From a virus, in the IMG/VR virus record IMGVR_UViG_3300005253_000070: a stretch of 64,000 bases of DNA; one strand, 5' to 3'. Under the pieces are notes generated by a model. It was not told the origin of the DNA. It did no database searches and saw only the letters and a program-made list of their open reading frames with translations. Shown here one piece after another: positions 11,608-55,887 of this stretch. Numbering within the stretch: position 1 is the stretch's first letter; each line of letters opens with the position of its first letter. The position numbers and the translations under genes were made by a program.

Positions 11608-11629
11608 AGAAGAAGGAGTGTAGACCAAC

Positions 11630-12162: not shown

Positions 12163-12721
12163 CCCCTGGTCATTGGAGAGGCGACTTGGTTGGGACAGGA
12201 GGAAAGCCCCACATATGGAGAATCCATCTCACCCAACGATGAAGGAACTGAAAGGTTTGCTCAACGAGCAGGCTGACCTCATGCATCACAACGCTAGTCT
12301 GTCGAGCATGCTACCCACCATGAACTACTATGGAGAGGAGATCGACAATCGGTTTGATGGGCGGCTAGCCAACTACGTGGAGCACATCCTACTTGTCGAC
12401 CTGTCATACAGAATGAAGGGAAAGTTTGGCATCGACCTCACTTTCAGGCAATATGGAAGGGGCGGAGCAACTATCGCTCCTACAGAGTGGGTCGTCGAGG
12501 GATATGGAATTATGACCGAGTATTCTGGACTCGACGGAGACACAGCGATCGAAGAGTTGCTGCCGTTCTACTGTGAAGACCAGACCAACCTCAGTAGATA
12601 CCATGCCATGCGCAAGCTGCTGCTCATCCTGGAGTACATCAATGACTACTGGACAGAGCAGGTGAAGCACTGTTCAGAGTGGTGGGACCAAGAAGTCGAA
12701 TGCATGCAGGAAACTGCCTAG
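12155..12721 (+). CDS. hypothetical protein
   Basis: 188-aa ORF overlapping the upstream stop by 8 nt. No motif recognised. Confidence 0.55.
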   Translation: MSSPWSLERRLGWDRRKAPHMENPSHPTMKELKGLLNEQADLMHHNASLSSMLPTMNYYGEEIDNRFDGRLANYVEHILLVDLSYRMKGKFGIDLTFRQYGRGGATIAPTEWVVEGYGIMTEYSGLDGDTAIEELLPFYCEDQTNLSRYHAMRKLLLILEYINDYWTEQVKHCSEWWDQEVECMQETA

Positions 12722-12723
12722 TG

Positions 12724-12752
12724 TTGACACGACAGCCAAAAAGCGATACAAT
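12724..12752 (+). promoter_or_regulatory. sigma70-like promoter TTGACA-N17-TACAAT
   Basis: TTGACA at 12724-12729, a 17-nt spacer and TACAAT at 12747-12752, in the 46-nt gap after the stop at 12721. Only one mismatch to consensus. Confidence 0.5.
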
Positions 12753-12767
12753 GGGGGTACTCATTCA

Positions 12768-13010
12768 GTGTTACTTTTGGACATCGTAGAAAGCCTCACT
12801 AACCGGGTGGCAACCCAGCCAGATGAGCGCACAGGAATAGCGAAGTGTATCTATTGCGGTGCACTCATCCTTGACGTATCTGGTCGGACTGCCCACGAAC
12901 ACAAAGCGTTTTGTGCCTGGCGTTTGGGTAAGGAGCTCGTACAAAAGAAGGCAAGTCGATGTGAAAGAGATCCCATTGACACAGGGCTACGTGGCTCTGG
13001 TAGACGATGA
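12768..13010 (+). CDS. small protein with C-x-Y-C...H-x-H-x3-C-x-W module; 3' end overlapped by HNH gene
   Basis: 80 aa with GTG start. Contains CIYCGALILDVSGRTAHEHKAFCAW, matching the C-terminal modules of 2733..3938 and 5916..6323. The last ~50 nt overlap the HNH ORF and there is almost no leader after the promoter. Confidence 0.4.
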   Translation: MLLLDIVESLTNRVATQPDERTGIAKCIYCGALILDVSGRTAHEHKAFCAWRLGKELVQKKASRCERDPIDTGLRGSGRR

Positions 13011-41762: not shown

Positions 41763-43238
41763 CTAGGATCCAATCATCAGGATGCCGTCTGTTCCTGCAC
41801 GAAGACCGCCAGCGACGCAGAAGTTGCCACTTATTCCGGCGTCAATTGCATTCAAGTGAATGTTCGCAGGAGTGGCAGCTGCAGTGTCTGGCAGCTGATA
41901 CCAGGTACTTCCACCATCCAAAGACCGGAAGACGTATCCCATTGCACCGTCAGTTGCCGTCATGAACCCAAAAGGAGAATCCGGGTGATGTGAAAAGGCG
42001 ATTCCATGGACCTCTCCTTGCCCACTCAATCCGAATACTTTCTCCGTCCAAGTCACACCGCCATCTGTGGTGAAATACATGCGCCCACCAGCATCACCAA
42101 TCATCCAATAGAACCGAGTCCGCATCCAGATGGTATTGATGATCTGCACAGTCGGGCTCGTGATGGCCGCCCAGGTGGCACCACCATTGGACGAGAACAG
42201 AATCACACCGGCTGCGCCTACTGCAACGATGTTTCGACTATCTGACCCATGGACCGCAATCAGGTTCTGCGCCGTCAGGACCGCGTTGTGGATGACGGTG
42301 ACGCCGTCTGCTGGGTTGGCCATTGAGTAGATGATCCCACTATTACCAACAAGCCAGGACTGCGTTGAGCTGTGCGAGTGAATGTCATTCGGGCCACCAC
42401 CGGCAATGAAGCCAGCAGCCACTTCTTGCCACGTATCCAGATCATCAAGATCCACATAGTGGAGAGAGAGTGAATCAGCAGATGGAACAACGACATTGAC
42501 ACCACCGACAAGGGCCACTGCAGACGGGTCCTCATCAGCTGCCAACGTGTCGATGTCATACTGCTCACAGGTTAGTCCACCATCGAGAGACACGATCAGC
42601 TCGGCGGGCAAACCAGGAGATCCCGTAGTATACCCAACTGTCACGGCAAAGATGCGGTTCTCTCCTTCGCTTTCGTAGCCACATTCGCCGCAGGAGATGT
42701 AGTCATCAATGGTGACATCGACGACTTCCTTGTCGATCTGCGCTGCACACGTCTCAGCGAGGGCCATCTGGTCGATCTCCCACAGCATTCGAGCTGTGAT
42801 GTCGCCGGTCAAGAGGATTGTGGCCCTCCCGGCCTCGTCCAGTGCCGTTTGCTCATCACCCGATCGGTTGGTGAACCTTGCTTTCTCATAAGCAAGGATT
42901 TTTTCCCATCCCCCATTCTGGTCTTGGGGGTTTCCACACTTTCCATAATGCGCTTGGATGTGCATCGGGCAAACTGCAGAGAGGATGGGGTTGGTGAGGC
43001 CAAAGCGAGCAATCATGCTAGTCGTTGGCAACGAGCTCTCGCCGCTGACCACATCAATATCCTCAAATCGATCGTAGGCAAGTCGAGAGGGAATCTGCAC
43101 GCGGGACACTTCTCCCTCAGCCTTGGCAAACGAGCCAAGACGTGCCATTCCCTGGTAGACCATCGAGCTATTGGGGTTAGCCCCGCTAACTTGAAGGAAA
43201 ACCCGACCATGCCCCGTTTGGAATACTCTTTCAGACAT
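41763..43238 (-). CDS. major tail (tube) protein candidate with C-terminal BNR/Asp-box beta-propeller
   Basis: 491 aa with GGAGG RBS, in the position directly before the chaperones and TMP. Asp-boxes SSNGGATW, TTDGGVTW and SLDGGSTW, plus a degenerate SLDGGLTC. Confidence 0.55.
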   Translation of the reverse strand: MSERVFQTGHGRVFLQVSGANPNSSMVYQGMARLGSFAKAEGEVSRVQIPSRLAYDRFEDIDVVSGESSLPTTSMIARFGLTNPILSAVCPMHIQAHYGKCGNPQDQNGGWEKILAYEKARFTNRSGDEQTALDEAGRATILLTGDITARMLWEIDQMALAETCAAQIDKEVVDVTIDDYISCGECGYESEGENRIFAVTVGYTTGSPGLPAELIVSLDGGLTCEQYDIDTLAADEDPSAVALVGGVNVVVPSADSLSLHYVDLDDLDTWQEVAAGFIAGGGPNDIHSHSSTQSWLVGNSGIIYSMANPADGVTVIHNAVLTAQNLIAVHGSDSRNIVAVGAAGVILFSSNGGATWAAITSPTVQIINTIWMRTRFYWMIGDAGGRMYFTTDGGVTWTEKVFGLSGQGEVHGIAFSHHPDSPFGFMTATDGAMGYVFRSLDGGSTWYQLPDTAAATPANIHLNAIDAGISGNFCVAGGLRAGTDGILMIGS

Positions 43239-43267: not shown

Positions 43268-44458
43268 CTAGACTGTAATCCCCTCAAGTGATGCATAGAA
43301 GTTCGAGACAGTTTTCCATGCTTCCCAAGCGCCTCGTTGTGGTCCGAATGGGTTGGATGCCTGCTGAAACGTCATGCTGTCATCTTGCGGGATCTCTTGC
43401 CAGTACGAAAATATCTTGTTTATCGACTCTCCTCCTCCAGAAACTGGTCCCGTCAGCAAGGCCGTGGCAAAAGCCGCGACTGTTCGAGCGAAGGGAGACG
43501 ACATCCGCCCAAACTTATCTGAAGGCCACCCGGATAGGTAATAGAGTCGTACAAGTTGCGGTATCCGTGTCCAACTTTGTAGGAGATTCCATTCACTGTC
43601 CGTGTCATCCCACTTTGCTGGAACCAGCGATGCTATTCCTTTCTCTGGAAGCCATGGCTGTAGAAGGCCATATTGCTCACCAAAAGCAAGAGGTGCTAGC
43701 GCACTGTCTTGCCACCCGAAGACGATGGGAGCGAATTCGTTCGTATCGCTTCTTGAGTATACTCTGTAGACATCGACGTTGGCAAGGAAAGAAGCTGGAT
43801 CATTGCCATCTATAAACTTGCCCATCCCGTCCCACAGAGTGGGCTTGACAAACCACACCGATTGTCCCTCTATCGTAATGGTCGTTCCAGAAATCCACAC
43901 CTCTAGATTTCGGATACTCTCTTCGACGGTCGTGTCTGTCTCCCCTGCTGGATACACAGCAATCTCAGCAGGCAGCCACGACGAAGCATCGGCATGAATG
44001 ATCTCGAAGCGCATGATCTCGTTAAAGCCATCTCCGTCACGATCGATACTCGATCCGGAGATGTCCACGCCTGCTTCAATCAGGCTTACGAATCTTCGTC
44101 CACCCCCTATAAAGCGCGTGTGCTTCAGGTTCACAGTCTTCCTGTGTCGGGGATAGTTCATCTCCGGTGCGATTCTAGGCTGTGGATATATTTGGCGCTC
44201 ATCTGCCACATACTTTGGAGCTAGCCAGAATCCAGTATGCATAGACATCAGGTCTTCTGCCTTGGCTATAGCATCAGCTACCTGCTGCCTGCTTGCTTTG
44301 CCTGACTGCTGCCACCCATGCTGATACCACAAATCGTGAGTCCCTCGTTCCTCCGGGATCTGTGTTGTGATCACTTGATTGAAAAGTCGTGGATCGAATT
44401 GCATCTCCTCTGCCCACTGGTCCAAGCTGAGGAGTGTCGGAGTAGTCGCCTTTGCCAT
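43268..44458 (-). CDS. virion structural protein (head-tail joining region), function unknown
   Basis: 396 aa with AGGAGG RBS, between the glycan cassette and the tail gene. Confidence 0.5.
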   Translation of the reverse strand: MAKATTPTLLSLDQWAEEMQFDPRLFNQVITTQIPEERGTHDLWYQHGWQQSGKASRQQVADAIAKAEDLMSMHTGFWLAPKYVADERQIYPQPRIAPEMNYPRHRKTVNLKHTRFIGGGRRFVSLIEAGVDISGSSIDRDGDGFNEIMRFEIIHADASSWLPAEIAVYPAGETDTTVEESIRNLEVWISGTTITIEGQSVWFVKPTLWDGMGKFIDGNDPASFLANVDVYRVYSRSDTNEFAPIVFGWQDSALAPLAFGEQYGLLQPWLPEKGIASLVPAKWDDTDSEWNLLQSWTRIPQLVRLYYLSGWPSDKFGRMSSPFARTVAAFATALLTGPVSGGGESINKIFSYWQEIPQDDSMTFQQASNPFGPQRGAWEAWKTVSNFYASLEGITV

Positions 44459-44466
44459 ATCTCCTC

Positions 44467-44739
44467 CTATGAAAGGATCTTGAATGTCGTCTTTCCAAAA
44501 CGGCGTACCAGCTCATCCGCATCCTGTCTAGGCATGCGAACTCTCTTCCTGGCTCCTGCATCAAACCTGTACTTTCGTCTCGACGGCAGAGGGAATGACC
44601 GAGCGCCCATGATGTCTAAGAGGAACTCCACCTGAACTTGTTCGAATCTTTTCTTCTGCTCTCTCTTCACCACTGCAGAGGACGTCTTGGGAGCATCCAG
44701 ACGGATCGAACCAGGCCGCATTCTTGATCGCGCTCGCAC
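44467..44739 (-). CDS. hypothetical very basic small protein
   Basis: 90 aa, R/K-rich. Weak RBS and uncertain start. Confidence 0.35.
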   Translation of the reverse strand: MRARSRMRPGSIRLDAPKTSSAVVKREQKKRFEQVQVEFLLDIMGARSFPLPSRRKYRFDAGARKRVRMPRQDADELVRRFGKTTFKILS

Positions 44740-44766: not shown

Positions 44767-47151
44767 TCAACCACGCCTCGCGGCTGGAGTCATATCAGAG
44801 TACCTCCCTCTTATCTCTAGGAGGAGAGCGTCTTTGTTTCTTAAACTCTCCTCTCTGCGTACTCCGGTATCGTATCGATATGCGAAGAGCGGAAGCGGAA
44901 CCCTTGCGCCTCCATAGCCGTTCATACCCAACTTGATTTCGTAGTCCCAGTCCTCCCACAGTGCCAGATTTTCGTCGAACCCACCGATGTCGAAGAACGC
45001 CTTTCTCGGGTGGAGAAAGGTGATTGCAAACAGGGCGTGCAACTTCAAACGGTCCAGATTCCATGGCTCAGCTCTATGGGCTTTCCCTTCTGGCAATGCA
45101 TACCAGTCGGAATAGAAAAACATGGCATCATCTGGGCATTCCTCAGCAGCCAAGAGGGTTTCGTGAACATATCCCCGCATCAAGTAGTCATCCGCGTCCA
45201 CGAAAGTGAGATACCTTCCTCGAGTATGCATCACGCCGATATTTCTTGCTGCAGAAACGTTTCCGATCTTTTGATTTCGTACCCACCGCACCCACGGGTA
45301 AGCATCTCTGTACGGAACAGAGCCGTAGTCCTCCAGGTCTCCTTCCTTCGTATCGTCCACAACGATGACTTCCCATCGATCATCGATCTGACCGGCAATG
45401 GACTCCAGGGCGTCTTGCAAGAGAGTCTTGTGTCCATCCCAAACAGGGATAACAAAACTGACTTCCGGCCTGTCGTAGTTGGGAACAGGGTGGGAAACTT
45501 TGTTATCTGGAGCTATTCGAGCAGCGAATGGAATTGGCCCACCGTTGGCAACGGGAAGCCATGCCAACCAGCGAGGTTCTTCCTTTTCTGCCCTTCTGAT
45601 TTGCGCCGTGGAGCTCATCTTATGAACACGATACTGATAGACAGCTTCCTCTGTGCAGCGTTCGACATCGTAGCCGATCAAAGGAATCCTCGTCCACAAT
45701 TCAGCATCTTCTGCAGGAGCAGCGTGCTGTCTAAACCCTCCTGCTCGCATAAATGCCCGTCTTCGCATCATATTGCACGATGGGACCTGGCATCTATTTT
45801 TCAGTTGTTGATCCATTCTAAACTTAGGGGGCCAGTCAGACTTTCTTCTGCTGACCTCTCCGGCCTCATTTATCGTAGCAAGTTTTCCATAAACCAAACC
45901 GAGAGTCGCCTTCTGAGTGATGCCCGTGAGAAGATCAACCAAGAAGTTTGGCAGCATCCTATCGTCTGCGTCAAGGAAAGAGAGGAACTCACCAGAGGAT
46001 GCCATGGCGCCGCTATTTCTAGCAGCAGCCACACCCTGATTCGGTTGGTCAATCACGGTGAATCTGCTATCTCCTCTAACAGCAGCACGAATCACCTGCA
46101 AGGAGTCATCCTTGGATCCATCGTTCACAACGATGCACTCCCAATTGTCATACGTTTGCGCCTTGACTGATTCAATGGCCTCCACCACGAAGGAGCTATA
46201 GTTGTAGCAAGGAATGATGACAGAGATATGACCTTCCCTATCTCTGGCGATATTCCTCAGGGCCAAATCATAGACGGAGCGATACCTGCCCATCGATTTC
46301 GCCCACGTATACTCCAACGCACGCTTCCTAGCTGCTCGGCTTAGTTCTTGGTGATTGTCCTGGATGTACTGAAGGCCTCTCAGTGTGTCTTCCATATTTC
46401 CAGGCTCAGCAACGTACCCCTCTTTCTTGTGCCGCACAAGAAATGGAAGATGCCCCCATCGCCAACCAAGTACAGGAAGACCAGCAGCCATTGCTTCTAG
46501 TATACCAATTCCAAACGTCTCCTTTGTTGGAGCAAAGTAGATGTTTGAGGAGTAGACGACCTTCTTCATTTCTTGGTAAGTCATAGAGCCAATGACGGAC
46601 ACATTTGTGGCACGCTCGCCGAATGTCGTGATGAACTGCGTACCCAATGCCGCTTGGGCTAGCTCGTCTAGGGACTCAGGGGAGCAAACACCAAAGGTCC
46701 TATTCTTGTTCCAAAGAACTACCGGTGAATCAAATGAGTATGGCTTTTCTGGCCATTCATCAAAGCCCAATCCGTGTGGCACCACCTCTGGCCAGAACCC
46801 CATATCTCTTGCAAATAGCTCAGCCACCCACGGACTTGGCACAGTGACGACTGATGCCTCCCGCGCCGAATCAATGACCAACTGGTTGATTCTCCACATC
46901 CAATTTTCCATCTCAGCAGGCTCGGCTGTTGGGTACAACCCATGGCAGTGAAGAACATCTATCTTGCGAGTTCGCATGTTATGTGAATGTATATGTCCCG
47001 CAAACAAGTCCGCGTTTTTCTCGCTTCCTACAAAAGAGATCCCATAGTCTGGGAGCATGTTGTGCATTCGTCGAATCACAATGTCAACACCGCTACGAAG
47101 TTTCTCCTCAGGCTTCGGGGGTGGAATAAGGTGTAGCTTTATTTCCTTCAT
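44767..47151 (-). CDS. three-domain glycosyltransferase (GT4-like GT-B + two GT2-like GT-A domains)
   Basis: 794 aa. The N-terminus has ETFGIGILEAMAAGLPVL (GT4 E-x7-E region). Then VIIPCYNYSSF...VVNDGSKDD...FLDADD, followed by FVIPVWDGHKT...VVDDTKEGD...FVDADD. Confidence 0.85.
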   Translation of the reverse strand: MKEIKLHLIPPPKPEEKLRSGVDIVIRRMHNMLPDYGISFVGSEKNADLFAGHIHSHNMRTRKIDVLHCHGLYPTAEPAEMENWMWRINQLVIDSAREASVVTVPSPWVAELFARDMGFWPEVVPHGLGFDEWPEKPYSFDSPVVLWNKNRTFGVCSPESLDELAQAALGTQFITTFGERATNVSVIGSMTYQEMKKVVYSSNIYFAPTKETFGIGILEAMAAGLPVLGWRWGHLPFLVRHKKEGYVAEPGNMEDTLRGLQYIQDNHQELSRAARKRALEYTWAKSMGRYRSVYDLALRNIARDREGHISVIIPCYNYSSFVVEAIESVKAQTYDNWECIVVNDGSKDDSLQVIRAAVRGDSRFTVIDQPNQGVAAARNSGAMASSGEFLSFLDADDRMLPNFLVDLLTGITQKATLGLVYGKLATINEAGEVSRRKSDWPPKFRMDQQLKNRCQVPSCNMMRRRAFMRAGGFRQHAAPAEDAELWTRIPLIGYDVERCTEEAVYQYRVHKMSSTAQIRRAEKEEPRWLAWLPVANGGPIPFAARIAPDNKVSHPVPNYDRPEVSFVIPVWDGHKTLLQDALESIAGQIDDRWEVIVVDDTKEGDLEDYGSVPYRDAYPWVRWVRNQKIGNVSAARNIGVMHTRGRYLTFVDADDYLMRGYVHETLLAAEECPDDAMFFYSDWYALPEGKAHRAEPWNLDRLKLHALFAITFLHPRKAFFDIGGFDENLALWEDWDYEIKLGMNGYGGARVPLPLFAYRYDTGVRREESLRNKDALLLEIRGRYSDMTPAARRG

Positions 47152-47660
47152 GCTTGCACACCCCCAACGTGAGGAGAAGGAACATCATTCAACAAGGCAA
47201 ATTCACCCCATGCCTCAAGAGCAGCAACGTTGTAGGCACAGCCGGCATCTGCTTCATTCACAAAGCGCCCAAGATTCCTGTAATGTCCCGATACAAGTAT
47301 TTGAGCACGCCATTTCTTCTTCGGTTTGTCCCAGTAGACACCCTTAAATCTGGAACTTCCCCTAGTCTTCTTTCGATTCGCGGCGTTTTGAGATCTCGTG
47401 CACACGCGAAGGTTCGCAATCCTACGATTATCGAGTGTGTCATGGTTTACATGGTCAACGAGCACCCCCTTGGGCGCTTTCATGATCTGCCTATGCATAT
47501 AGATTGTCCCTGGTCTCTCTCCTTTGACTCTGGGGACATTGCGCACCGCTTTTGGACCACCTTGCATTGTACACACATGCCACCTGTACTTCGATAGCTC
47601 CTCGTAGTCTTCGTCATCCACTTTTGTCGCATAGCCCCTAGTGAGCTTGATTATTCTCAT
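47148..47660 (-). CDS. HNH homing endonuclease with AP2 domain (copy 3)
   Basis: ATG at 47660 lies 1 nt after the upstream stop and is in frame with track ORF 47148..47699. Motifs MRIIKLTRGYATKVDDEDYEELSKYRWH, VDHVNHDTLDNRRIANLRVCTRSQN and SSRFKGVYWDKPKKKWRAQI. The stop overlaps the GT start. Confidence 0.85.
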   Translation of the reverse strand: MRIIKLTRGYATKVDDEDYEELSKYRWHVCTMQGGPKAVRNVPRVKGERPGTIYMHRQIMKAPKGVLVDHVNHDTLDNRRIANLRVCTRSQNAANRKKTRGSSRFKGVYWDKPKKKWRAQILVSGHYRNLGRFVNEADAGCAYNVAALEAWGEFALLNDVPSPHVGGVQA

Positions 47661-47661
47661 G

Positions 47662-48444
47662 CTACAGCTTCTTGATCTCTGCCAGAATGCGAGCAGCAAC
47701 CTGTGCAGGAGTCCATATTCCTGGGGTGTTAAGGATCGTCATGCAGCGTTCTCTTCCTTGAGGAGATTCGTATGGATAACCCTCCCTCGGAGATAGGTTT
47801 CGATCGAGATAGATCCACCAAGGACGGGTGGGAGCCATTGCATCCTCAACGGAATTTCTGATAGACTCCGTAGGGGCTATTACAGACACAACAACGTTTC
47901 TGTATTTAACTAATTGCTTGGCCAGCCGTGCCACTCGAATGTTATGGGCAAGTCTCTCTTCGATCGAGAAACCAGCTCCTAGAGAGATCGAAGCTCTCAT
48001 CTCATCCCCATCCAGGTTCACAGCATTCAAGGGACCCAGGAGCTCGTTTGCTATCGTGGTCTTCCCAGCACCGGAGTTTCCCGTTATCCAATAAATGCGA
48101 TGTCCCCCGTCTTCTCGTATCGCCGTTCCGCTCACGTTGGACGCTCTTGGCGCGCTCACTTTTCGAACTTCCCATCCTGGAGTCCTTCCGTAGACGACCT
48201 CAACGATGTTTGGCACATTGATGATTATCATGCGCCCTTCTGCAATCTCCTCCTTGTAGAAGGCCTCGAAGGCTACCGTTCTTTGCGCTTGAGTGAAGGG
48301 GTTGCTGTCTGTTCCATCCTCTTTTCTTAGGGCGATGACAACGCGCCGTCCCTCACTGAGAACCTTGTCTATCAACGCGAAGTGCCCCCTGTGTGGCATC
48401 GGCACCTGAAAGCGTCCCAGAATCAAGCTATACTCTTTGGACAT
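47662..48444 (-). CDS. NMNAT/cytidylyltransferase-like nucleotidyltransferase fused to adenylylsulfate (APS) kinase
   Basis: ATG at 48444 follows AGGAGG. N-terminal domain has GRFQVPMPHRGH and VSGTAIR. C-terminal domain has WITGNSGAGKTTIA, LDGDEMR, GFSIEERLAHNIRVARLA and VSVIAPT, collinear with CysC. Confidence 0.75.
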   Translation of the reverse strand: MSKEYSLILGRFQVPMPHRGHFALIDKVLSEGRRVVIALRKEDGTDSNPFTQAQRTVAFEAFYKEEIAEGRMIIINVPNIVEVVYGRTPGWEVRKVSAPRASNVSGTAIREDGGHRIYWITGNSGAGKTTIANELLGPLNAVNLDGDEMRASISLGAGFSIEERLAHNIRVARLAKQLVKYRNVVVSVIAPTESIRNSVEDAMAPTRPWWIYLDRNLSPREGYPYESPQGRERCMTILNTPGIWTPAQVAARILAEIKKL

Positions 48445-48495
48445 ATTGACCCTCCTGAAGGTCCACCAGTTGCTTTGAATCCATTCCGTCATCCT

Positions 48496-49065
48496 CTAAA
48501 GCCCAGTCGCTCCTGGCACAGAAAAAATGATTGGGCGCAAAAGCTGTTCGTACTGTGGCGGATACGCTACGATTGCATCGCGGACCAACATAACGATGCT
48601 ATCCTCTAACCTACAACCGATCTCCTCCAGTGTTGGCCACCCCTCAAGCCCCTGTCGGCCAAATAGACGGGCGTCATCGATGAAGATGACATGGTTATAC
48701 GGATGCTGTGCGATAGCATCTAGCTCTTCTCTGATCGGAGGCCTGTGCTTACCATCGTGAGCGTCGAGCCAGAAGAGGATAGGCCCTTCTTTTACAAGAC
48801 TTAGAAGATCTGGAAGGAGAGAACCGGAGTCTCCCCAAAGGGCAACGAGGTTCTCCACCCCCGCCTCCTCTGCTACATGCTGCATCGCCAGGTATCCCTT
48901 CATGCTCTTCTCAATCGTATAAACATCCCTGAAGCGGGATGCAGCCCACATAGCTGTATCACCTCGATGCGTACCAGTTTCGATGAACACGTCAATGGAC
49001 AATGCTTCAGCAATTTCTTCGACCAGTTTTTGGAGATCCTCGTTTGCCGATAGCGATCCACCCAC
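48496..49065 (-). CDS. putative class I SAM-dependent methyltransferase-like protein
   Basis: 189 aa, GTG start after AAGGAG. Contains VFIETGTHRGDT...YTIE...GDS...LFWLDAH...VIFIDD, a pattern seen in polysaccharide-cluster methyltransferase-like proteins. Confidence 0.45.
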   Translation of the reverse strand: MGGSLSANEDLQKLVEEIAEALSIDVFIETGTHRGDTAMWAASRFRDVYTIEKSMKGYLAMQHVAEEAGVENLVALWGDSGSLLPDLLSLVKEGPILFWLDAHDGKHRPPIREELDAIAQHPYNHVIFIDDARLFGRQGLEGWPTLEEIGCRLEDSIVMLVRDAIVAYPPQYEQLLRPIIFSVPGATGL

Positions 49066-49080
49066 CTGCAGGTCTCCTTG

Positions 49081-50046
49081 CTACAAACTTTCCTGAAGTA
49101 CGTTATCCTCAATCCACCTATAGGTAACTGAGAGTCCTGCCTCTAAGGGAATGCTAGGAGCCCACTTTAGGATTTCGTTGATTCTATCGTTGTTCGAATT
49201 TCGACCACGAACACCCTGTGGACCATCGATATGCTTCTTTTGTATCCTCACACCTGCAATCTCTGCGATGATGTCGGCAAGCTCATTGATAGAGACTAGC
49301 CTGTCACTGCCCAAATTGAGAGGATACGGGTAGTCCGAGCGCATAAGCCTAAGAATCCCCTCGATGCAATCATCTACCAGCATAAATGATCGCGTTTGCT
49401 CTCCATCACCCCAGATCTCTATCCTCGGTTCCCAGGAGGTTCTTTTTCCTTCAGCAATCTTTCTGCAAAGAGCAGCAGGAACCTTCTCTGCATTATCATT
49501 CCAAGATCCCTTCGGCCCATAGACATTATGAAACCGAGCAATCCGCGTAGTCATCCCATAGTCTTCTGCATAGGAAAGGCAGAGTTGCTCCATACACAGC
49601 TTCTCTAGGCCATAGGTATCCTGAGGATCGGCAGGGTAAGCATCATCCTCTTTTAGTCCTAGAATGTCTGTCCGTTCCTGCTTGAAATTTGGGTAGACAC
49701 AGGCGGAGGAACTGTAGAAGAAGCGACCTACTCCGCCTGTCCTTGCAGCCTCAAGAATATGTGTGTCTATAAGTAGGTTGTCATGCAGAATGGATGCGCT
49801 GTGAGAGGAGATGAAGCCCATACCTCCCATAGAAGCCGCCAAGTGGTATACCTCATCTATTCCATCCACAGCGATATAGCACGTGGCTCTGTCTCGCAGA
49901 TCACCAAAGAAGAAATCGTCGCATGGAATAGGGCCATACCGTGGTTTAGCAATGTCTGCTCCACGTACCCAATACCCTTCTTCCTTCAACCGCTTTGCCA
50001 AATGTCCGCCGATGAACCCTGACACACCTGTTACAAGTGCCTTCAT
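49081..50046 (-). CDS. NAD-dependent nucleotide-sugar epimerase, GDP-mannose 3,5-epimerase-like
   Basis: 321 aa with VTGVSGFIGGHL, SSSACVYP and YGLEKL (Y-x3-K). Long blocks (ASMGGMGFI, RFHNVYGP, WGDGEQTRSF) resemble GME as I remember it. Confidence 0.8.
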   Translation of the reverse strand: MKALVTGVSGFIGGHLAKRLKEEGYWVRGADIAKPRYGPIPCDDFFFGDLRDRATCYIAVDGIDEVYHLAASMGGMGFISSHSASILHDNLLIDTHILEAARTGGVGRFFYSSSACVYPNFKQERTDILGLKEDDAYPADPQDTYGLEKLCMEQLCLSYAEDYGMTTRIARFHNVYGPKGSWNDNAEKVPAALCRKIAEGKRTSWEPRIEIWGDGEQTRSFMLVDDCIEGILRLMRSDYPYPLNLGSDRLVSINELADIIAEIAGVRIQKKHIDGPQGVRGRNSNNDRINEILKWAPSIPLEAGLSVTYRWIEDNVLQESL

Positions 50047-51365
50047 CTTTGCTCCGATACACCAATGTAGCGCATCTTGATCTTCTTGGAGTTCTGTATT
50101 TTGCCCCTGAGAATTCTCCAGCAGTCAACAACTGTTCCCTGCTTCTGCCTCTGCTCGAAATCAGACTGAGAAATCTGGGCAAACTGCTCTGTGCGATTTG
50201 CGATGATTATGACGTCTGCCTTTTTCAAACAAGCCCCTAGAGACCAAGGCTCAATGAATTCTGGAAGAGACATCTGCCTCATCCTCTCGTCATATCCTAC
50301 AACTCTTACATCCTTAGCTGCCATCCTTCTAGCTAGTTCTATGGAAGGCGATCCAATCATACATGGAGTTCCCGATTTGTATGACAACCCTAGAATGGCA
50401 ACAGTACCTTTTTCACTGAGACATCCGGTAGCAATATCAACAAGTCTTCTCCACCTAGCCTTATTGGATCTGCTTACAGCCCATGGAAAGTTGCCTGGGA
50501 TACAAAGATCTTCTACAATCTCTTCAAAGGCCCTCACATCTCGAGGAAAGCAGGTTCCCCCATACGGCATTCCCGCTATGAAGTATTTCTTTCCGACCCT
50601 AGAGTCAGATCCAACAGCAGCGGAGACCAAGTCGATATCACCACCAGGGAAGCGCTCACAAATGTCCCCAAGAAGATTTGCGAATGCTATCTTCGAAGAA
50701 ACAAACATGTTGATCCCCATCTTGACAATCTCTGCATTAGTGAGTGACATCTGGTGAATCTGATGTGGTTCTACCAGCATTGTTGAGAGTATAAAGCCGA
50801 CCAAACCAACTCCAGCCTGCTGACCAGACTGTCCCACGATAACAAGGTTCGGGTTCAGGTAGTCTTCTATGACACTGCCTATGGCAACAAGCTCAGGATT
50901 GTATGCAAGTTCCCAGCTGTCACCACAGGCGTATCCCGACGCCTGTTCGATCGCCGGCTTGATCACTTCCTCCATCGTTCCTGGCATGAGCGTACTCATC
51001 ACGGAGATGATTCTACTGTCTCCATATGGCACTGTACCTCGGATGGCCTTTCCGATCCGCTTGCACACATCCAGCACATATTCATGAGAAAACTTCCCAT
51101 TTTTCAGGCTGGGTGTTGGTACCAGTACACCAATGACATCTGCACCATGCACACCTTGCTTCAGGTCAGTGGACGCGGAAAAGCTCCCCTTTACAGCGGA
51201 CATCATTTGCTTCATGTGGGGCTCATCCACAGGAGAAATCCCTGCGTTAATCTTATCCACAACCTTTCTGTTTTTGTCTATTCCAATGACATCATGGCCT
51301 CTACTGGCGATGGCAGCCGCTATCGGTGCCCCCAACTTTCCCAGCCCAACTATTGTGATGTTCAC
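50043..51365 (-). CDS. nucleotide-sugar 6-dehydrogenase (UDP-glucose/GDP-mannose dehydrogenase family)
   Basis: 440 aa. Has N-terminal IVGLGKLGAPIA and the catalytic-Cys motif GGTCFPRDV. Confidence 0.85.
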   Translation of the reverse strand: MNITIVGLGKLGAPIAAAIASRGHDVIGIDKNRKVVDKINAGISPVDEPHMKQMMSAVKGSFSASTDLKQGVHGADVIGVLVPTPSLKNGKFSHEYVLDVCKRIGKAIRGTVPYGDSRIISVMSTLMPGTMEEVIKPAIEQASGYACGDSWELAYNPELVAIGSVIEDYLNPNLVIVGQSGQQAGVGLVGFILSTMLVEPHQIHQMSLTNAEIVKMGINMFVSSKIAFANLLGDICERFPGGDIDLVSAAVGSDSRVGKKYFIAGMPYGGTCFPRDVRAFEEIVEDLCIPGNFPWAVSRSNKARWRRLVDIATGCLSEKGTVAILGLSYKSGTPCMIGSPSIELARRMAAKDVRVVGYDERMRQMSLPEFIEPWSLGACLKKADVIIIANRTEQFAQISQSDFEQRQKQGTVVDCWRILRGKIQNSKKIKMRYIGVSEQR

Positions 51366-51988
51366 CAGTTTTCCCTAATCCATATTGTCGTTTTCTTATC
51401 CCTCTTCCCATGCGTGAACCAGTTTCTTTGCACGAGAATCGGCTTGGTTGCTCCAAGAAACTTGCCTTTCACGCTTTTTGCTCTTTCTGCGCCTATTCGC
51501 TCCGCTGTCCATGGAGTAGCATGTCTTCGTAGCAACCGACGAAACACACCTGTTTGCCAAATGGTTCCCTTTTGTGAAAACAAAAACGGATTATCTTTGG
51601 CCATCCTAACGAAAAGAGCATCGCGTTTGTACGGCGTCCCCTTCGTTGTGAATCTCTTCGACAGCCTAACCATGCAGACTGAGGAATCTTCAGTTAGGGC
51701 AGCTAGCGCCCGAGCAATCCTTCGCGGATAAATCTCTACGGGGATGAGATCATCTAGGCAGAGCATCATTAGCTCGTCATGCATGTGATGGCGAAGGAAC
51801 AAATGCAGATTGTCCGCAAAGCCAAGATCTTTTCCCAGCTTGATGACCGTTGCATCAACGTCTATGTTCTCTTCGTTTGTGATGACAATCACGTCGTAGG
51901 GACACTGTGGCCAAAGTTTCCGAAGAAAATGAATGTGTGCCGGGATAGTATGGGCATACTTGTCACAAGTGGGAATGACAATCTTCAC
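51362..51988 (-). CDS. hypothetical protein, tandem paralog A (possible GT-A-like, CLDDL)
   Basis: 208 aa. Starts MKIVIPTCDKYAHTIPAHIHFLRKLWPQCPYDV, near-identical at the N-terminus to the upstream gene. Confidence 0.5.
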   Translation of the reverse strand: MKIVIPTCDKYAHTIPAHIHFLRKLWPQCPYDVIVITNEENIDVDATVIKLGKDLGFADNLHLFLRHHMHDELMMLCLDDLIPVEIYPRRIARALAALTEDSSVCMVRLSKRFTTKGTPYKRDALFVRMAKDNPFLFSQKGTIWQTGVFRRLLRRHATPWTAERIGAERAKSVKGKFLGATKPILVQRNWFTHGKRDKKTTIWIRENW

Positions 51989-52644
51989 CAGTGACGCTCA
52001 ATCCACCTGGTTACGAACTTGTCCTTTCGTCCCCGATGGGAGATCCAATTCATCTGCTCCAGGGTAGCGTGGGTAGCCCCAAGGTTCATCCCTCCTCTAC
52101 TTCTTAGCCTGGCAGTGCCATTTCCTTCTGTGCGTGTTGATGTCTCTCCTCCCTCAAGAATCGATTGATGAACTGACGATCTCCACAGGGTGGCCTTGTT
52201 TGAGTACGTATACCTATCTCTGCGCATATGCACGTAGATATTGTCAGGCCCATAGCGATCGTGTGGCTTTTCTAGTGGTCGCTTGACCCAACGCTCCGCC
52301 AGCCGAATCTGATTGACGACACGATCTGCAGAGACTACTGTTACTGCCTCCTCGATGAGAACGCCATCAATATGAAACGGGACCAAGTCATCCATGCACA
52401 AGATGAAAAATTGATCATCTTGAAGGAACCTTTTATGCGTCTCAAGAAAGTTGCTGGCCCACAGCCTATCTTGACCAAGGTGCTCTATCCTAGCATTGAT
52501 TTCCTTGGCATGAGGAACGGGAGCAGATCCTCCAACGACCACCAGCACCTCGTATGGGCAGGAAGGCCACAGCTTGTGGAGGAAGTGAACATGTGCGTGA
52601 ATCGTATGCACATACTTGTCGCAGGTGGGGATGACAATCTTCAT
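51985..52644 (-). CDS. hypothetical protein, tandem paralog B (CMDDL)
   Basis: 219 aa. Starts MKIVIPTCDKYVHTIHAHVHFLHKLWPSCPYEV. Confidence 0.5.
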   Translation of the reverse strand: MKIVIPTCDKYVHTIHAHVHFLHKLWPSCPYEVLVVVGGSAPVPHAKEINARIEHLGQDRLWASNFLETHKRFLQDDQFFILCMDDLVPFHIDGVLIEEAVTVVSADRVVNQIRLAERWVKRPLEKPHDRYGPDNIYVHMRRDRYTYSNKATLWRSSVHQSILEGGETSTRTEGNGTARLRSRGGMNLGATHATLEQMNWISHRGRKDKFVTRWIERHW

Positions 52645-53393
52645 TTGTACCCCCAGCGAGCCATGTATTTTTTGCAGCTTCTTTCAATCATCCTCACCTG
52701 AGTGTGATTCAGCCAGGTTTTCCAGTGGCCAGAAGTTCCGAACACGACAGCAGGAAGAGAAGGGAGCACCGGGTGCTCTCTGGGGGGATTCTCCCCTGCC
52801 TTCTCCAGCTTCCTTCTCTTTTTCCAGTACTCATCTTTTGCCTTCTGCTGATCTGGCAACCTGAATGGGTTGGTAAGTGTCCTTGCCTCTTTTAGGGAGA
52901 TGGCGATGCCCAAGAAAGTGGCGATCCGCAATGCCTCTGCAGATAGATCCTCAATCATCACCTCAAACTTTGAGACGTGGATCATGTTTCTTGGAATTTT
53001 ATCTACCCACATGTCAAACCAGCCAAGCCACATGGGAAGCTTTTCATTTATCACTGTCTTCCCAGAAAACTCACCGATCTTCCCAGAGCGTCTTGCTCGC
53101 TCCTGCATGGAGACGAAGATGTCTCTAGGATCTCGAACAGTTCCTACCACCCGAATGCGCCCCTCCTTTAAGAACCGCGCAGCTGTCTCTGACTCGTCTG
53201 GTAGATACCGAAAGACTTTGCAGATGACGAGCTCGTCTTCGTCCTTGTCGTGCTCCACCAGCCTACTCTCCTTGTGATAGCCTATCCCCCTTCCCCTGTT
53301 TGCGTGTTCAACTATGGCAGCCGCTATTCTATTCTGCGTTGTTGATCCTGTACGATACGTCCCTGTGACGAATACCCATATAGGTGCACTCAT
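52641..53393 (-). CDS. PAPS-dependent sulfotransferase
   Basis: 250 aa with AGGAGG RBS. Has a 5'-PSB-like TGTYRTGSTT, a 3'-PB-like VRDPRDIFVS and a C-terminal GTSGHWKTWL. Confidence 0.7.
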   Translation of the reverse strand: MSAPIWVFVTGTYRTGSTTQNRIAAAIVEHANRGRGIGYHKESRLVEHDKDEDELVICKVFRYLPDESETAARFLKEGRIRVVGTVRDPRDIFVSMQERARRSGKIGEFSGKTVINEKLPMWLGWFDMWVDKIPRNMIHVSKFEVMIEDLSAEALRIATFLGIAISLKEARTLTNPFRLPDQQKAKDEYWKKRRKLEKAGENPPREHPVLPSLPAVVFGTSGHWKTWLNHTQVRMIERSCKKYMARWGYK

Positions 53394-53417
53394 TCTGACC
53401 CTCCTGGAGTCGTATGT

Positions 53418-54329
53418 CTACCTGCTCCCAATTAGGATGTTGGAATCAAAGTCGATTCTCTTTACAGCCTGTTTTCCACCGAAGGATGTCACAGCGGCAA
53501 GGAGATCGTAGCTGTCTTCCAAGTTTCCCTCCTTTGGTGGTATAGGCTTTCCGCTCATTCGTATGAGCAGTCGCGTCGCTCCGAACCAGTCTCTGTCCTC
53601 GACCACAGTGCGAACGACCTCTGCCGGGCATTCATTCAACGCGTTTGTTGAAATAAACAACTCAGGATTTCCCAGTGCTTCGTTGCTCATTCTTAGGACG
53701 AGGGATGAGGGGATGATATTTATCTTCCCTTTCTCTGCTTCCTTCCCCTCCACAGTGATCAGGTTGACCGCATCCTCCCCAAAGAGGACGGATAGGTACA
53801 ACCACTGAAGCACACAAACCGGAGGAAAGTCAGCAATCGTATAGGTTAGCGAATCGTGTCCCATCCGCTTGTAGATCTTTGGTTGGCCACCATAGCCAGA
53901 GCCCCAGTCAAGGATTGATTTTGTCTGTCTTATTGGCACCCCCGTTTCCTTTGCAGCCACATACGCGTAGAACAAGAACTTGGTGACATCCCAGTTCACC
54001 GTCTTTCCTAGAAGGTTGGTTTGGGGAACGCCACCAAACTGATCTACAACCAGGGCAGCCTTGGTCAACCGCTGATCAAAGTTGTCCTCCAACCACGTCT
54101 TCACCAGATTGTACTTCGCAGGGTTGGTTCCCATTCTGCCCCGAAGACCAGGCTTTCCCATGAAATCAAAGTCAGGATGTGGTAGGAGAAGTTTTTCCGC
54201 CCTCCACGCACCACTCACCCAAAAATCCGACAGCTGCTCTTCTTTAGCAAACTGACGGATGTTCTCATACCTCTGTTGCACTTGCTCTCGTAGTCTCAAA
54301 TACCTATCGTGTTGCGTTTCCTCCAACAT
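53418..54329 (-). CDS. putative SAM-dependent (sugar O-) methyltransferase
   Basis: 303 aa with AGGAGGG RBS. Contains ILDWGSGYGG...YTIADFPPV, resembling a Rossmann SAM-binding motif. Confidence 0.45.
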   Translation of the reverse strand: MLEETQHDRYLRLREQVQQRYENIRQFAKEEQLSDFWVSGAWRAEKLLLPHPDFDFMGKPGLRGRMGTNPAKYNLVKTWLEDNFDQRLTKAALVVDQFGGVPQTNLLGKTVNWDVTKFLFYAYVAAKETGVPIRQTKSILDWGSGYGGQPKIYKRMGHDSLTYTIADFPPVCVLQWLYLSVLFGEDAVNLITVEGKEAEKGKINIIPSSLVLRMSNEALGNPELFISTNALNECPAEVVRTVVEDRDWFGATRLLIRMSGKPIPPKEGNLEDSYDLLAAVTSFGGKQAVKRIDFDSNILIGSR

Positions 54330-54346
54330 TGCTGGTTACCCTCCTG

Positions 54347-54370
54347 ATAAGGGAGGGCCGAAGCCCTCCC
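54347..54370 (-). terminator. intrinsic-terminator-like hairpin downstream of capsid gene
   Basis: On the - strand: GGGAGGGC-TTCG-GCCCTCCC followed by TTAT. Lies 84 nt after the capsid stop. Confidence 0.5.
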
Positions 54371-54453: not shown

Positions 54454-55887
54454 TTACCACTCCTTGTAGTAGCTTGGCGGCGTCGGGTAGTACTCGTCTC
54501 CACCCTTCTCGAAGTACGGGCTGGATGGGAAGGGCTCACGCAGATGCTGGAGCGGCTCGTACATGATGTTCTCGAGACGACCGGCTAGTTGGGGAGTCCT
54601 GAGCACCACTCGGGGCTCAATTTTCCCCTGGAACTTGAAACAGTAATTCAAGTTCTGCATGCTCCACATGTATCGGCCCCCATCGGTAACCCAAAACTGT
54701 CCCTTGTTCCGTAGCACAGCCAGATCGCCCTGAGCCTGTGAGTAGTCCAGATACTCCCAGTACAACGTCCTCATCCCCTTCGCCCGAAGCGGAAGGATGT
54801 AGATGTCGCTGGCAAACTGACCAGGGATCAGGTTTGCATTGGTCGCGTTATTGTCTTCGAAAATACCGTCATCAGTGATGACCGGAACCTGGAGACCGTT
54901 GATCCAGAGGTACTTTCCCCTCCGCATTTCGTCTCTCATGTTCACATTCGTCGCATCATTCATGATCACGACATTCGTACCCGCAGAGTTTGCACATCGA
55001 TCGGTGAGATACTGGCAGGGCCATACGGCGCTCAGCTCGAAGAAAAGCTGCGGTCGCATAGCAATGACCCAGTCCACAGGATCGAGGCTCATGCGCTCGG
55101 CGTTGTGGGTCAGATACTGCATCATCATCGAGAGATACTGAACGATGCTAGGAGAGGCTCCATCGATGCTGTTGAATCCAAAGTCTTTGATGTCTGAATC
55201 CAAAGCAGGGCAAGGAGACTGGCTGAGTGCGTCAACCTTTCCAGTCGAGACCAGGATCTCAAGTCCAGGAAACTCCGCATATCCGCCGTTGGTGTTGTTC
55301 ACAGGGTTGCCCTGGAAAAGCATCCTCGTAAGCCACCGCTGAAACTCAATGCCGATGATGACGAGCTGCGACTGAACAACAGAGTTCAGCCATCCGCCCT
55401 TGGGAACACCTTCCTGAGTCAACAGCTGATGACCCTCACCAATGACATCACCTAGAAGGCGAAGATCTGTGGTGAGTTTGTTATTCAACACCTGCATTAG
55501 CGTGTTGACTTCCATCTCTTTCGAGCTTCGTGCCACACGGCCAAAGGCAGCAGTCTGATGACAGACCTCGAGAACACCACCAGGGGCGTCATCACAGGGG
55601 CCATCCGGCTCAGCCGATCCATCCCCCTCAAAGCCGGTGAGGAAGGGGTAGATTGGGTTCAGGTAGACTGTTGGGATTGCCGGAATCATACCCGACATGC
55701 CCCGAGGAGAAATAGACGCATTGATAACCGTGTCTTCAAGACCAAAGTTGCTGAAGAAGCCCTTTGGTCCGAAGACGAGCTGTGCATTAGGAACACCGGA
55801 GATCGCCTTTTGCTGGATTTGATTACCAGCGAGGAGGGCGAGAGTCTTGTTGATGCCCTCCAAAATTGCAACTGTTTGCCTATCCAC
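54454..55887 (-). CDS. major capsid protein candidate (by position and size)
   Basis: GTG at 55887 lies 7 nt after GGAGGG. The track ORF extends to 55902 without an RBS. About 477 aa, directly after the protease/scaffold gene. No motif verified. Confidence 0.55.
   Translation of the reverse strand: MDRQTVAILEGINKTLALLAGNQIQQKAISGVPNAQLVFGPKGFFSNFGLEDTVINASISPRGMSGMIPAIPTVYLNPIYPFLTGFEGDGSAEPDGPCDDAPGGVLEVCHQTAAFGRVARSSKEMEVNTLMQVLNNKLTTDLRLLGDVIGEGHQLLTQEGVPKGGWLNSVVQSQLVIIGIEFQRWLTRMLFQGNPVNNTNGGYAEFPGLEILVSTGKVDALSQSPCPALDSDIKDFGFNSIDGASPSIVQYLSMMMQYLTHNAERMSLDPVDWVIAMRPQLFFELSAVWPCQYLTDRCANSAGTNVVIMNDATNVNMRDEMRRGKYLWINGLQVPVITDDGIFEDNNATNANLIPGQFASDIYILPLRAKGMRTLYWEYLDYSQAQGDLAVLRNKGQFWVTDGGRYMWSMQNLNYCFKFQGKIEPRVVLRTPQLAGRLENIMYEPLQHLREPFPSSPYFEKGGDEYYPTPPSYYKEW

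Follow-up and report, generated by a model that had tools for sequence, protein, structure and literature searches.

A hypervariable glycan-gene island between the capsid and tail genes of an uncultured marine-sediment phage, with predicted sulfation and methylation functions in one allele

The 64,000-nt stretch of DNA analysed here (the window; IMG/VR virus record IMGVR_UViG_3300005253_000070) carries at 44767–54329 a cassette of ten genes with predicted functions in glycan synthesis, methylation and sulfation. The genes are designated c1 to c10, counted from the capsid gene onwards (Table 1). An earlier note, made from the sequence without database searches, had described them as a single cassette wedged between capsid and tail genes and co-oriented with the late operon. 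All ten genes are on the minus strand where the note had placed them, and the cassette does lie between a predicted HK97-fold capsid gene and the tail module. While the cassette is real, it proved to be one allele of a hypervariable island that is found across the lineage and anchored by a core triple glycosyltransferase (c10). With moderate confidence, we propose that the enzymes of the island attach a strain-variable glycan to virion proteins, late in infection and in the cytoplasm, most likely on the C-terminal tail of the capsid protein, and that in this phage the glycan would be sulfated and methylated.

The lineage was compared using 55 loci from IMG/VR and 13 contigs from GTDB. Dozens of loci keep the same gene order: the large terminase gene (TerL), genes for proteins of 449 aa, (235 aa) and 671 aa, the capsid gene, a variable region X, the triple glycosyltransferase gene, and the genes for proteins of 396 aa and 491 aa. 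Region X, which extends from the capsid gene to the triple glycosyltransferase gene, varies in length between 0.8 and 9.3 kb (median 4 kb). A Pfam census of 149 open reading frames (ORFs) from 32 bounded islands returned DegT aminotransferases (13), NAD epimerases/dehydratases (12), Methyltransf_24 proteins (12), extra glycosyltransferases of family GT2 (10), sulfotransferases (8), Polysacc_synt_2 proteins (7) and DNA methylases (5), together with other methyltransferases, GNAT acetyltransferases, FkbM proteins, GHMP kinases and cytidylyltransferases. Judged by these domains, the island repertoire is of the O-antigen or glycan-tailoring locus type.

The turnover of genes is illustrated by locus L070, the closest relative, whose nucleotide sequence is 91–93% identical to that of the window over the packaging and capsid genes. 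This identity ends at window position 54338, just past a hairpin at 54351–54370. Beyond the break, c1 is missing from L070, and identity falls to 68% for the sulfotransferase and c4, to 75% for the APS-kinase (APS, adenosine 5'-phosphosulfate) and HNH genes, and to 81% for the glycosyltransferase. The epimerase of L070 is of another type, and its island has two added Methyltransf_24 genes. Also added in L070 (7311–8012) is a protein of the TOD1/MUCI70 family, a plant-type putative glycosyltransferase family. Locus L069, with a capsid protein 65% identical to that of the window, has the window's gene order without the APS kinase.

The hairpin at the boundary (GGGAGGGC-TTCG-GCCCTCCC) is strong and corresponds to the terminator proposed in the earlier note, whereas its U-tract is weak. 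In nearly all of the 59 relatives tested, a strong hairpin is found at most 130 nt past the capsid stop codon, many of them with U-tracts. The median folding energy (dG) of these post-capsid hairpins is -22.2, compared to -15.3 for control segments. We consider the hairpin a candidate for a terminator-like attenuator or an RNA stabiliser.

Gene c9 codes for an HNH-AP2 homing endonuclease, as had been proposed (HNH_3, 9e-9, and AP2, 5e-4, in Pfam; phrog_99, 9e-36). HNH (AP2) genes occur at differing island positions in L030 (11471–12394, minus strand), L046 (11632–12150), L068 (11433–11903, minus strand), L069 (14461–14784) and L070 (13124–13633). In L025, a TnpB/IS605 OrfB (Cas12f-like) gene is inserted directly past the capsid gene (11529–12977). 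The recurrence of HNH genes, taken together with this TnpB/IS605 insertion, indicates that the island site is a recombination hot spot, and the HNH endonucleases may drive the cassette exchange. Two more HNH_3 proteins were found among 33 other window ORFs that were scanned.

Within the cassette, the coupling of starts to upstream stops that had been reported is borne out by tight spacing: five junctions are 4-nt overlaps and the other gaps measure 1, 15, 24 and 51 nt. A spacer of 124 nt lies between the capsid gene and c1. Homolog comparison shifts the likely starts of c8 and c9 from those in the ORF list (both are given in Table 1). The GC content of the island is 49.9%, versus 52.4% in the rest of the late arm, a difference too small to be used as a signature of foreign DNA.

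The anchor of the island, c10, has the GT4+GT2+GT2 architecture of the earlier description, with one Glycos_transf_1 and two Glycos_transf_2 domains in Pfam. Full-length homologs with 29–55% identity are located at the same position in 31–34 loci, and the EX7E, DxDD and ED motifs of the three domains are at least 95% conserved among 32 homologs. Distant homologs (L012, L037, L063 and others) reach 860–1074 aa, with 100–280 extra residues that have no Pfam match. In a tblastn search with c10 against 50,697 phage records, 108 records matched, none of which spans at least 80% of c10; Mycobacterium is absent from the ten listed organism groups, which comprise 107 of the 108 records.

The tandem paralogs c3 and c4, for which the earlier note had given no function, are 39% identical to each other and share a conserved LCxDDL motif. 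Because PDB sequence searches with the c3/c4 profile gave nothing significant, the fold of c4 was obtained from an AlphaFold2 model (pLDDT 83). Its Foldseek matches are mostly GT-A glycosyltransferases (6p61, KfiA, GnT-I, TarS, TarP and GpgS; probability 1.0), and the model thus places c3 and c4 among the GT-A fold glycosyltransferases. Members of this predicted family were found in 28–33 related loci. Counting the three domains of c10, the cassette would encode five glycosyltransferase domains.

Some of these matches are to enzymes that act on host surface polymers. With its predicted GT-A fold, c4 resembles TarS and prophage TarP, two wall-polymer glycosyltransferases whose substrate in the cytoplasm is wall teichoic acid, and the PHROG matches of the c10 GT2 domains carry GtrB-like O-antigen-conversion annotations. 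This is in line with an alternative that we consider unlikely, namely that the soluble enzymes remodel the host envelope by acting on lipid-linked or polymer intermediates (precursors of teichoic-acid-like polymers, S-layer glycan, lipopolysaccharide (LPS) or capsular polysaccharide (CPS)). Such remodelling could block superinfection or stop progeny from adsorbing to debris. The gene content of the island is also like that of bacterial O-antigen and CPS loci, in which conserved flanks enclose a mosaic of genes for glycosyltransferases, epimerases, aminotransferases and methyl- or acetyltransferases, and shuffling of cassettes is expected of surface-antigen loci. Unlike those loci, the island is situated in a phage head-tail module and lacks Wzx and Wzy as well as an ABC transporter and a priming transferase. 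Pfam and membrane prediction gave neither a flippase or polymerase nor a priming phosphoglycosyltransferase for the cassette, whose proteins are all predicted to be soluble, with no transmembrane segment.

The window maps onto the 83,595-bp ENA contig SRR1555748 k127_15383, crossing the contig ends, and its two coordinate mappings differ by 127 nt, which is the k-mer size of the assembly. This implies a 127-nt terminal overlap and thus a circular, complete genome of ~83.5 kb (~83.47 kb). Neither a flippase nor a glycan polymerase is among the Pfam matches of the complete genome. Likewise, no integrase or other lysogeny gene was found among the Pfam matches of the genome (window ORFs plus the genes called in ~17 kb of the remaining ~19.5 kb, a scope that applies to all genome-wide absences given here), and the genome looks virulent. 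These absences argue against a host-envelope target, as do two further observations: in dozens of genomes the triple glycosyltransferase is a core gene lying within the head-tail module, not a moron located at the end of the genome, and the C-terminal tail of the capsid protein co-varies with the island.

The 482-aa capsid candidate of the earlier note is confirmed by structure comparison as an HK97-fold major capsid protein. Its AlphaFold2 model (pLDDT 70) has only phage capsids and encapsulins among the top 50 Foldseek matches in the PDB (probability 1.0), and the top matches in the viral library BFVD are mostly annotated as major capsid proteins. The protein has no Pfam or PHROG match. More than 1000 homologs are encoded on metagenomic contigs (up to ~76 kb among those listed), and a tblastn search against the 50,697 deposited phage genomes gave no match at E 1e-3.

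In 187 capsid sequences, except for a 352-aa fragment and those of loci L050 and L064, a tail of 13–29 residues follows a conserved GG motif. Ser/Thr/Tyr residues occur in this tail, which terminates in ..Y.(V/E)W and is modelled as a low-confidence coil; in the window it comprises residues ~469–482 (54454–54500). L050 (9968–11410) and L064 (9932–11353) are also the only loci in which the 396-aa gene follows the capsid gene without glycan genes in between. They are not sister lineages, and their nearest relatives (49% and 41% identity) have both the tail and the island. Tail and island would thus have been lost together twice independently (n = 2), which is suggestive of a functional link but no proof of one.

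The capsid tail might instead have a role in assembly, with the glycan being attached to the tail tube, the 396-aa or 491-aa protein or the fibres, or occurring as a free or loosely bound oligosaccharide or glycolipid. We regard this as quite improbable. The 396-aa and 491-aa structural proteins do flank the far side of the island and are syntenic with the glycosyltransferase, tail-tube subunits are glycosylated too in mycobacteriophages (PMC12619734), and the GT-A matches include small-molecule enzymes, e.g. glucosyl-3-phosphoglycerate synthase. However, the C-termini of the 491-aa and 396-aa proteins show no obvious difference in the island-less loci, and the sole island-linked feature that was found is on the capsid protein.

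Two enzymes are predicted to provide donor sugars. Gene c5, expected from the earlier note to code for a nucleotide-sugar 6-dehydrogenase, has all three UDPG_MGDP_dh domains in Pfam and matches TIGR03026 at 2e-89. The best PDB match is 1mfz (AlgD, GDP-mannose 6-dehydrogenase; 1.3e-51), followed by UDP-glucose dehydrogenases at 5e-49 to 1e-43. It is thus a predicted nucleoside-diphosphate (NDP)-sugar 6-dehydrogenase for which structure scores separate GDP-mannose and UDP-glucose only narrowly as substrates. Against the NCBIfam equivalogs AglM and TuaD, its scores fall far short of every cut-off. The epimerase-like protein c6 matches plant GDP-mannose 3,5-epimerase (2c59) over its full length (residues 2–319; E 7e-106), in agreement with the earlier assignment to a short-chain dehydrogenase/reductase of this kind. 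The aligned stretches SSAC(V/I)YP, YGLEKL and EK.PAA..CRK contain what we take to be the motifs with the catalytic Cys, Tyr and Lys of this enzyme (SSAC.YP, YGLEKL and EK.PAA.CRK).

The two methyltransferases of the earlier note both hold at the profile level, without a match above threshold for c1 or a direct one for c7. c1 scores 9e-8 against TIGR04371 (putative sugar O-methyltransferase), which is under the cut-off. A PDB sequence search with c1 gave nothing significant, while its top five PDB profile matches are all methyltransferases dependent on S-adenosylmethionine (SAM), albeit weak (E about 0.01). The class I SAM motifs ExGGGYG, D.PE and SLSE.P are seen across nine homologs, and c1 is a probable class I SAM-dependent (sugar O-) methyltransferase. 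For c7, there is no direct Pfam or PDB match. It aligns by hhalign with the Methyltransf_24 family of the lineage (94.6%, E 7e-8), and its homolog in L069 (53% identical) has a weak match to PF13578. At this profile level, c7 is assigned as a distant Methyltransf_24-like SAM methyltransferase.

Sulfotransferase and APS kinase are the two domain calls on which the earlier note had staked its proposal, and both pass their Pfam thresholds. c2 matches Sulfotransfer_1 (PF00685) with 43.1 bits (cut-off 22; 4.5e-11) over residues 7–248 of 250. Its translation contains TGTYRTGSTT and RDPRDIFVS, which we take to be the 5'-PSB and 3'-PB motifs for binding of 3'-phosphoadenosine 5'-phosphosulfate (PAPS). 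Several of its 53 homologs are on contigs of the same lineage, in which sulfotransferase genes occur in 10 distinct loci. In five of the loci (the window, L069, L016, L034 and L037), a c1-type methyltransferase gene adjoins the sulfotransferase gene, and this co-occurrence has p = 6e-4. The c1-type methyltransferase and the sulfotransferase thus form a two-gene module. In L042 (14408–15931), a 507-aa fusion protein has an N-terminal Sulfotransfer_1 domain and a c1-type methyltransferase-like domain, with a second sulfotransferase gene following it.

The kinase half of c8 matches APS_kinase (PF01583) with 57.7 bits (cut-off 21.1) and aligns to the solved structures 2gks and 2yvu through the P-loop, LDGD and GFS..R (NIRR) motifs. 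Against the equivalog TIGR00455 it reaches 57 bits, which is under the cut-off of 138.7, with ~100 of the 184 profile positions covered. By these alignments it appears to be a bona fide APS kinase which is divergent and shortened. The N-terminal ~110 residues match CTP_transf_like and NMNAT-like models (NMNAT, nicotinamide mononucleotide adenylyltransferase) and are closest to archaeal NMN adenylyltransferases; no ATP sulfurylase (PF01747) or CysD/CysN is recognisable in this domain with Pfam and NCBIfam. An NMNAT domain next to a P-loop kinase might suggest NAD salvage by a NadR-like protein. That reading was rejected because the kinase half has APS-kinase-specific motifs and scores above the APS_kinase threshold.

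An exhaustive search returned 2188 relatives. Some 30 of these are fused over their full length in the domain order of c8, and in others the order is reversed. The homolog in L070 is 82% identical. Among relatives from the kinase clade (set P0185–P0333), the fusion partner may also be a PAPS_reduct/CysD-like domain (P0215) or a sulfotransferase (P0217). Because the fusion occurs in both orders and with partners from the sulfur pathway, a sulfate-activating role of the small domain is a reasonable hypothesis; such a role, which would make c8 a candidate compact PAPS synthase, seems possible to us, although we lean slightly towards doubt. The gene set of the phage supports, as judged from domain assignments, only the step from APS to PAPS, and no ATP sulfurylase is among the Pfam matches of the genome. 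Of the "own sulfate donor" in the earlier note, the APS kinase is therefore solid, whereas sulfate activation by the nucleotidyltransferase domain is a conjecture. Both the window and L070 have an APS kinase together with a sulfotransferase. The usual reading of phage "cysC" (APS kinase) genes is as auxiliary metabolic genes for sulfur assimilation. In this island, the context argues instead for supply of PAPS to a sulfotransferase, and the nucleotidyltransferase-APS kinase fusions, known in both orders, offer a candidate for a new minimal PAPS synthase that can be tested directly.

From these genes, the following course of events can be envisaged. The capsid gene would be transcribed at a high level late in infection, with the 3' hairpin attenuating transcription so that the enzymes are made in catalytic amounts. 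The triple glycosyltransferase and the GT-A proteins (two in this phage) would assemble an oligosaccharide on a virion protein in the cytoplasm. The most likely acceptor would be the Ser/Thr/Tyr-containing C-terminal tail of the capsid protein, and tail proteins may also be acceptors. The composition of the glycan would be set by the variable genes. Here, GDP-mannose 3,5-epimerase and NDP-sugar 6-dehydrogenase would supply L-hexose and hexuronic-acid donors from GDP-mannose or UDP-glucose of the host, and the two SAM methyltransferases would O-methylate the glycan. The sulfotransferase would sulfate it with PAPS from the phage APS kinase, and the fused small nucleotidyltransferase may activate the sulfate. 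Recombination at the island, possibly promoted by HNH endonucleases, would reshuffle genes among near-identical phages and thereby create serotype-like virion surfaces. While gene identities, folds, synteny, mosaicism and the correlation of capsid tail and island are results of the comparison, we infer which protein is the acceptor, when and in what order the steps take place, which sugars are used and that the nucleotidyltransferase activates sulfate.

Several points weigh against glycosylation of the capsid tail. The correlation between tail and island consists of two independent losses only, and the tail is conserved in sequence rather than being variable and Ser/Thr-rich, so that an assembly role is possible. 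The hairpin could be a full terminator, in which case the island would be expressed independently of the late operon. Most islands with a sulfotransferase have no APS kinase, and the triple glycosyltransferase has no detectable homology to those of mycobacteriophages. The absence of membrane proteins leaves room for a target in the host, because the soluble prophage enzyme TarP modifies wall polymers of the host in the cytoplasm. Finally, the phage is uncultured and the labels of the metagenome bins are inconsistent.

A more specific version goes further. The capsid-tail coat would be present throughout a large, globally distributed lineage in cassette-shuffled "serotypes" and would consist, in this phage, of an anionic, O-methylated and sulfated glycan with uronic acid or L-hexose. 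The PAPS for it would be made by a hitherto unrecognised minimal PAPS synthase, with the ~110-aa nucleotidyltransferase acting as ATP sulfurylase next to the APS kinase. We think this version doubtful as a whole. If it is true, a sulfated glycan would be described for a phage particle for the first time, and a third type of sulfate-activating enzyme would be added to those known. If virions of this lineage are glycosylated at all, self-encoded virion glycosylation would be a core, diversifying trait of an abundant group of environmental phages, beyond actinophages. Sulfation would be a new chemistry of the phage surface with a bearing on charge, aggregation, mineral adsorption, decay, grazing and host recognition. 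Natural selection on the virion surface would be suggested by the serotype-like turnover and the sharpness of the recombination boundary, in a setting where antibodies cannot act as the driver.

The earlier note knew of no comparable case, and its claim of novelty was too strong. Cluster J mycobacteriophages were described in 2013 to have a variable block of glycosyltransferase and SAM methyltransferase genes between capsid and head-tail genes, with the target, viral or host, being left open (PMC3706429). That block shares with the island the genomic position, several glycosyltransferases (one of them two-domain), SAM methyltransferases and a content that varies among relatives. Homing endonucleases are frequent there, and with 477 aa (Omega gp15) the capsid protein is close in size. 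In contrast, there is no detectable homology to the capsid protein or to the full triple glycosyltransferase. Nucleotide-sugar synthesis, sulfotransferase and APS kinase, present here, are not reported for Cluster J, while its Ser/Thr kinase and metallopeptidase are absent here. The host of Cluster J is actinobacterial, whereas the phage described here is from marine sediment.

For the mycobacteriophages Che8, Corndog and Myrna, glycosylation of the C-termini of capsid and tail-tube proteins by phage glycosyltransferases was shown experimentally, according to two papers citing that work (Freeman 2023, Cell Host Microbe 31:1216; as cited in PMC12619734, PMC12363180). As far as described there, the likeness lies in phage-encoded glycosyltransferases and, here, in a capsid C-terminal tail which co-varies with the island. 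c10 is not detectably homologous to the glycosyltransferases of those phages (Che8 gp110, Corndog gp38), and glycosylation, an experimental result in those phages, is deduced from genes here. Relative to the same accounts, genes for donor-sugar synthesis, methylation and sulfation and the lineage-wide hypervariability distinguish the island. What appears to be new with respect to the actinophage systems, as predicted from the gene content, is the addition of donor-sugar synthesis and sulfation.

Sulfation genes in a viral glycosylation cluster have a precedent in Megavirinae, the second case to which the claim of novelty has to yield. Their clade-specific clusters include a SAT/APS kinase (SAT, sulfate adenylyltransferase; Ma457) and a sulfotransferase (Ma461) in Moumouvirus australiensis, with Cotonvirus as a further case (Notaro et al. 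2022, PMC10117803), and were proposed, without validation, to sulfate fibril glycans (PMC10117803). Like the island, such a cluster brings pathways for nucleotide sugars together with multi-domain glycosyltransferases, methyltransferases for sugars, a sulfotransferase and an APS-kinase enzyme, and its content varies by clade. Unlike the phage with its predicted HK97 capsid, these are giant viruses of eukaryotes with fibrils as targets. Ma457 is a canonical bifunctional SAT/APS kinase of 642 aa, whereas c8 has 260 aa, with only the ~110-aa nucleotidyltransferase ahead of the kinase. A literature search returned no report on sulfated glycans of phage virions or on a phage sulfotransferase combined with cysC, which is absence of evidence only.

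Table 1. Features of the island and its surroundings (positions refer to the window)
Feature	Coordinates	Strand	Basis
Major capsid protein, 482 aa, predicted HK97 fold	54454..55902	-	AlphaFold2 + Foldseek
GC-rich hairpin after the capsid gene, left island boundary	54351..54370	-	sequence, dG -19.9
c1, probable class I SAM-dependent (sugar O-) methyltransferase	53418..54329	-	sub-threshold TIGR04371, motifs, PDB profiles
c2, predicted PAPS-dependent sulfotransferase, 250 aa	52641..53393	-	PF00685
c3, predicted GT-A fold glycosyltransferase, paralog 1, 219 aa	51985..52644	-	39% identity to c4
c4, predicted GT-A fold glycosyltransferase, paralog 2, 208 aa	51362..51988	-	AlphaFold2 + Foldseek
c5, predicted NDP-sugar 6-dehydrogenase, 440 aa	50043..51365	-	UDPG_MGDP_dh domains, TIGR03026, 1mfz
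c6, GDP-mannose 3,5-epimerase homolog, 321 aa	49081..50046	-	2c59
c7, predicted distant Methyltransf_24-like SAM methyltransferase, 189 aa	48496..49065	-	hhalign
c8, predicted HIGH-motif nucleotidyltransferase (~110 aa)-APS kinase fusion	47662..48492, probable start 48444	-	PF01583, 2gks
c9, HNH-AP2 homing endonuclease	47148..47699, probable start 47660	-	HNH_3, AP2, phrog_99
c10, GT4+GT2+GT2 glycosyltransferase, 794 aa, conserved anchor, right island end	44767..47151	-	Pfam
Small conserved ORF, 90 aa, between c10 and the next structural gene	44467..44739	-	ORF list
396-aa conserved structural-module protein, first gene past the 90-aa ORF	43268..44458	-	synteny
491-aa protein, C-terminal BNR/Ycf48-like beta-propeller	41763..43238	-	PSII_BNR

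The phage belongs to an uncultured, siphovirus-like lineage from marine sediment. Its sulfotransferase c2 is 100% identical to LCGC14_0275360 from the marine-sediment metagenome of Loki's Castle. Megablast of the region against the 50,697 phage genomes gave no match, and there is no cultured relative. The window consists of two divergent arms. The replication arm on the plus strand codes for PolA with an N-terminal domain resembling uracil-DNA glycosylase (UDG), an SNF2 helicase, a PD-(D/E)XK nuclease and AAA_24, while the late arm on the minus strand opens with TerL (phrog_2, 2e-31). The genome outside the window amounts to ~19.5 kb, of which ~17 kb were scanned; small genes with almost no Pfam matches were found there.

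This layout bears on a further alternative, by which the glycosyltransferases would decorate hydroxymethylated bases of the phage DNA as a protection against restriction, possibly with a sulfated or methylated glycan. Virus-encoded glycosyltransferases that add diverse glycans to DNA are documented, according to a preprint as cited in a later paper (bioRxiv 10.1101/2023.12.21.572611; cited in PMC12619734), and DNA methylase genes do occur among the island ORFs of relatives (5 of 149). However, a thymidylate-synthase-like hydroxymethylase, a TET/JBP dioxygenase and a cytosine methyltransferase are all missing from the Pfam matches of the genome, the island is part of the structural module with the replication genes being on the other arm, and the co-variation of the capsid tail would be left unexplained. 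We thus consider modification of DNA highly improbable.

As the best match of TerL is from a haloarchaeal virus (26%), an archaeal (halophilic) virus was also considered. This was dropped because the replication set of PolA, SNF2, AAA_24 and PD-(D/E)XK is phage-typical and the isoelectric points of the proteins are not uniformly acidic. The metagenome bins to which the 13 contigs had been assigned are inconsistent (five Chloroflexota, three CPR (candidate phyla radiation), and Methanothrix, Altiarchaeales, Desulfuromonadales, a proteobacterium and Gemmatimonadetes). Host assignment from these bins was set aside, as the contigs are phage-sized and mis-binning is likely.

On the tail side of the island, the 90-aa ORF has no family match; an 84-aa gene is found at the matching position in L070. 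The 396-aa gene is syntenic in at least 23 loci, and its product has no match in Pfam, in PHROG or in PDB profile searches. The BNR propeller that the earlier note had seen on the neighbouring protein was recovered in the 491-aa protein (PSII_BNR, 2.8e-7), with profile matches to Ycf48 and xyloglucanase propellers at residues ~340–455. This BNR/Ycf48-like beta-propeller spans 300 residues, with invariant Cys residues in its N-terminal part. By gene order only, the 491-aa protein is a candidate for the tail tube. It is followed by ORFs of 215 aa and 87 aa, by a 1044-aa protein, taken to be the tape measure on account of a strongly hydrophobic segment, and then by a Sipho_Gp37-like protein. Searches of the structural genes against PHROGs and Pfam matched only TerL, BNR and Sipho_Gp37, and the lectin-like tail proteins of the earlier note found no support in Pfam.

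Two other proteins are of additional interest. The family A DNA polymerase at 23850–26225 (791 aa) combines an N-terminal domain of the uracil-DNA-glycosylase superfamily with a 3'-5' exonuclease domain. The early arm has, at 1133–1588 of the window (L072:10625–11080), a gene for a protein with a Macro domain (ADP-ribose binding or hydrolase).

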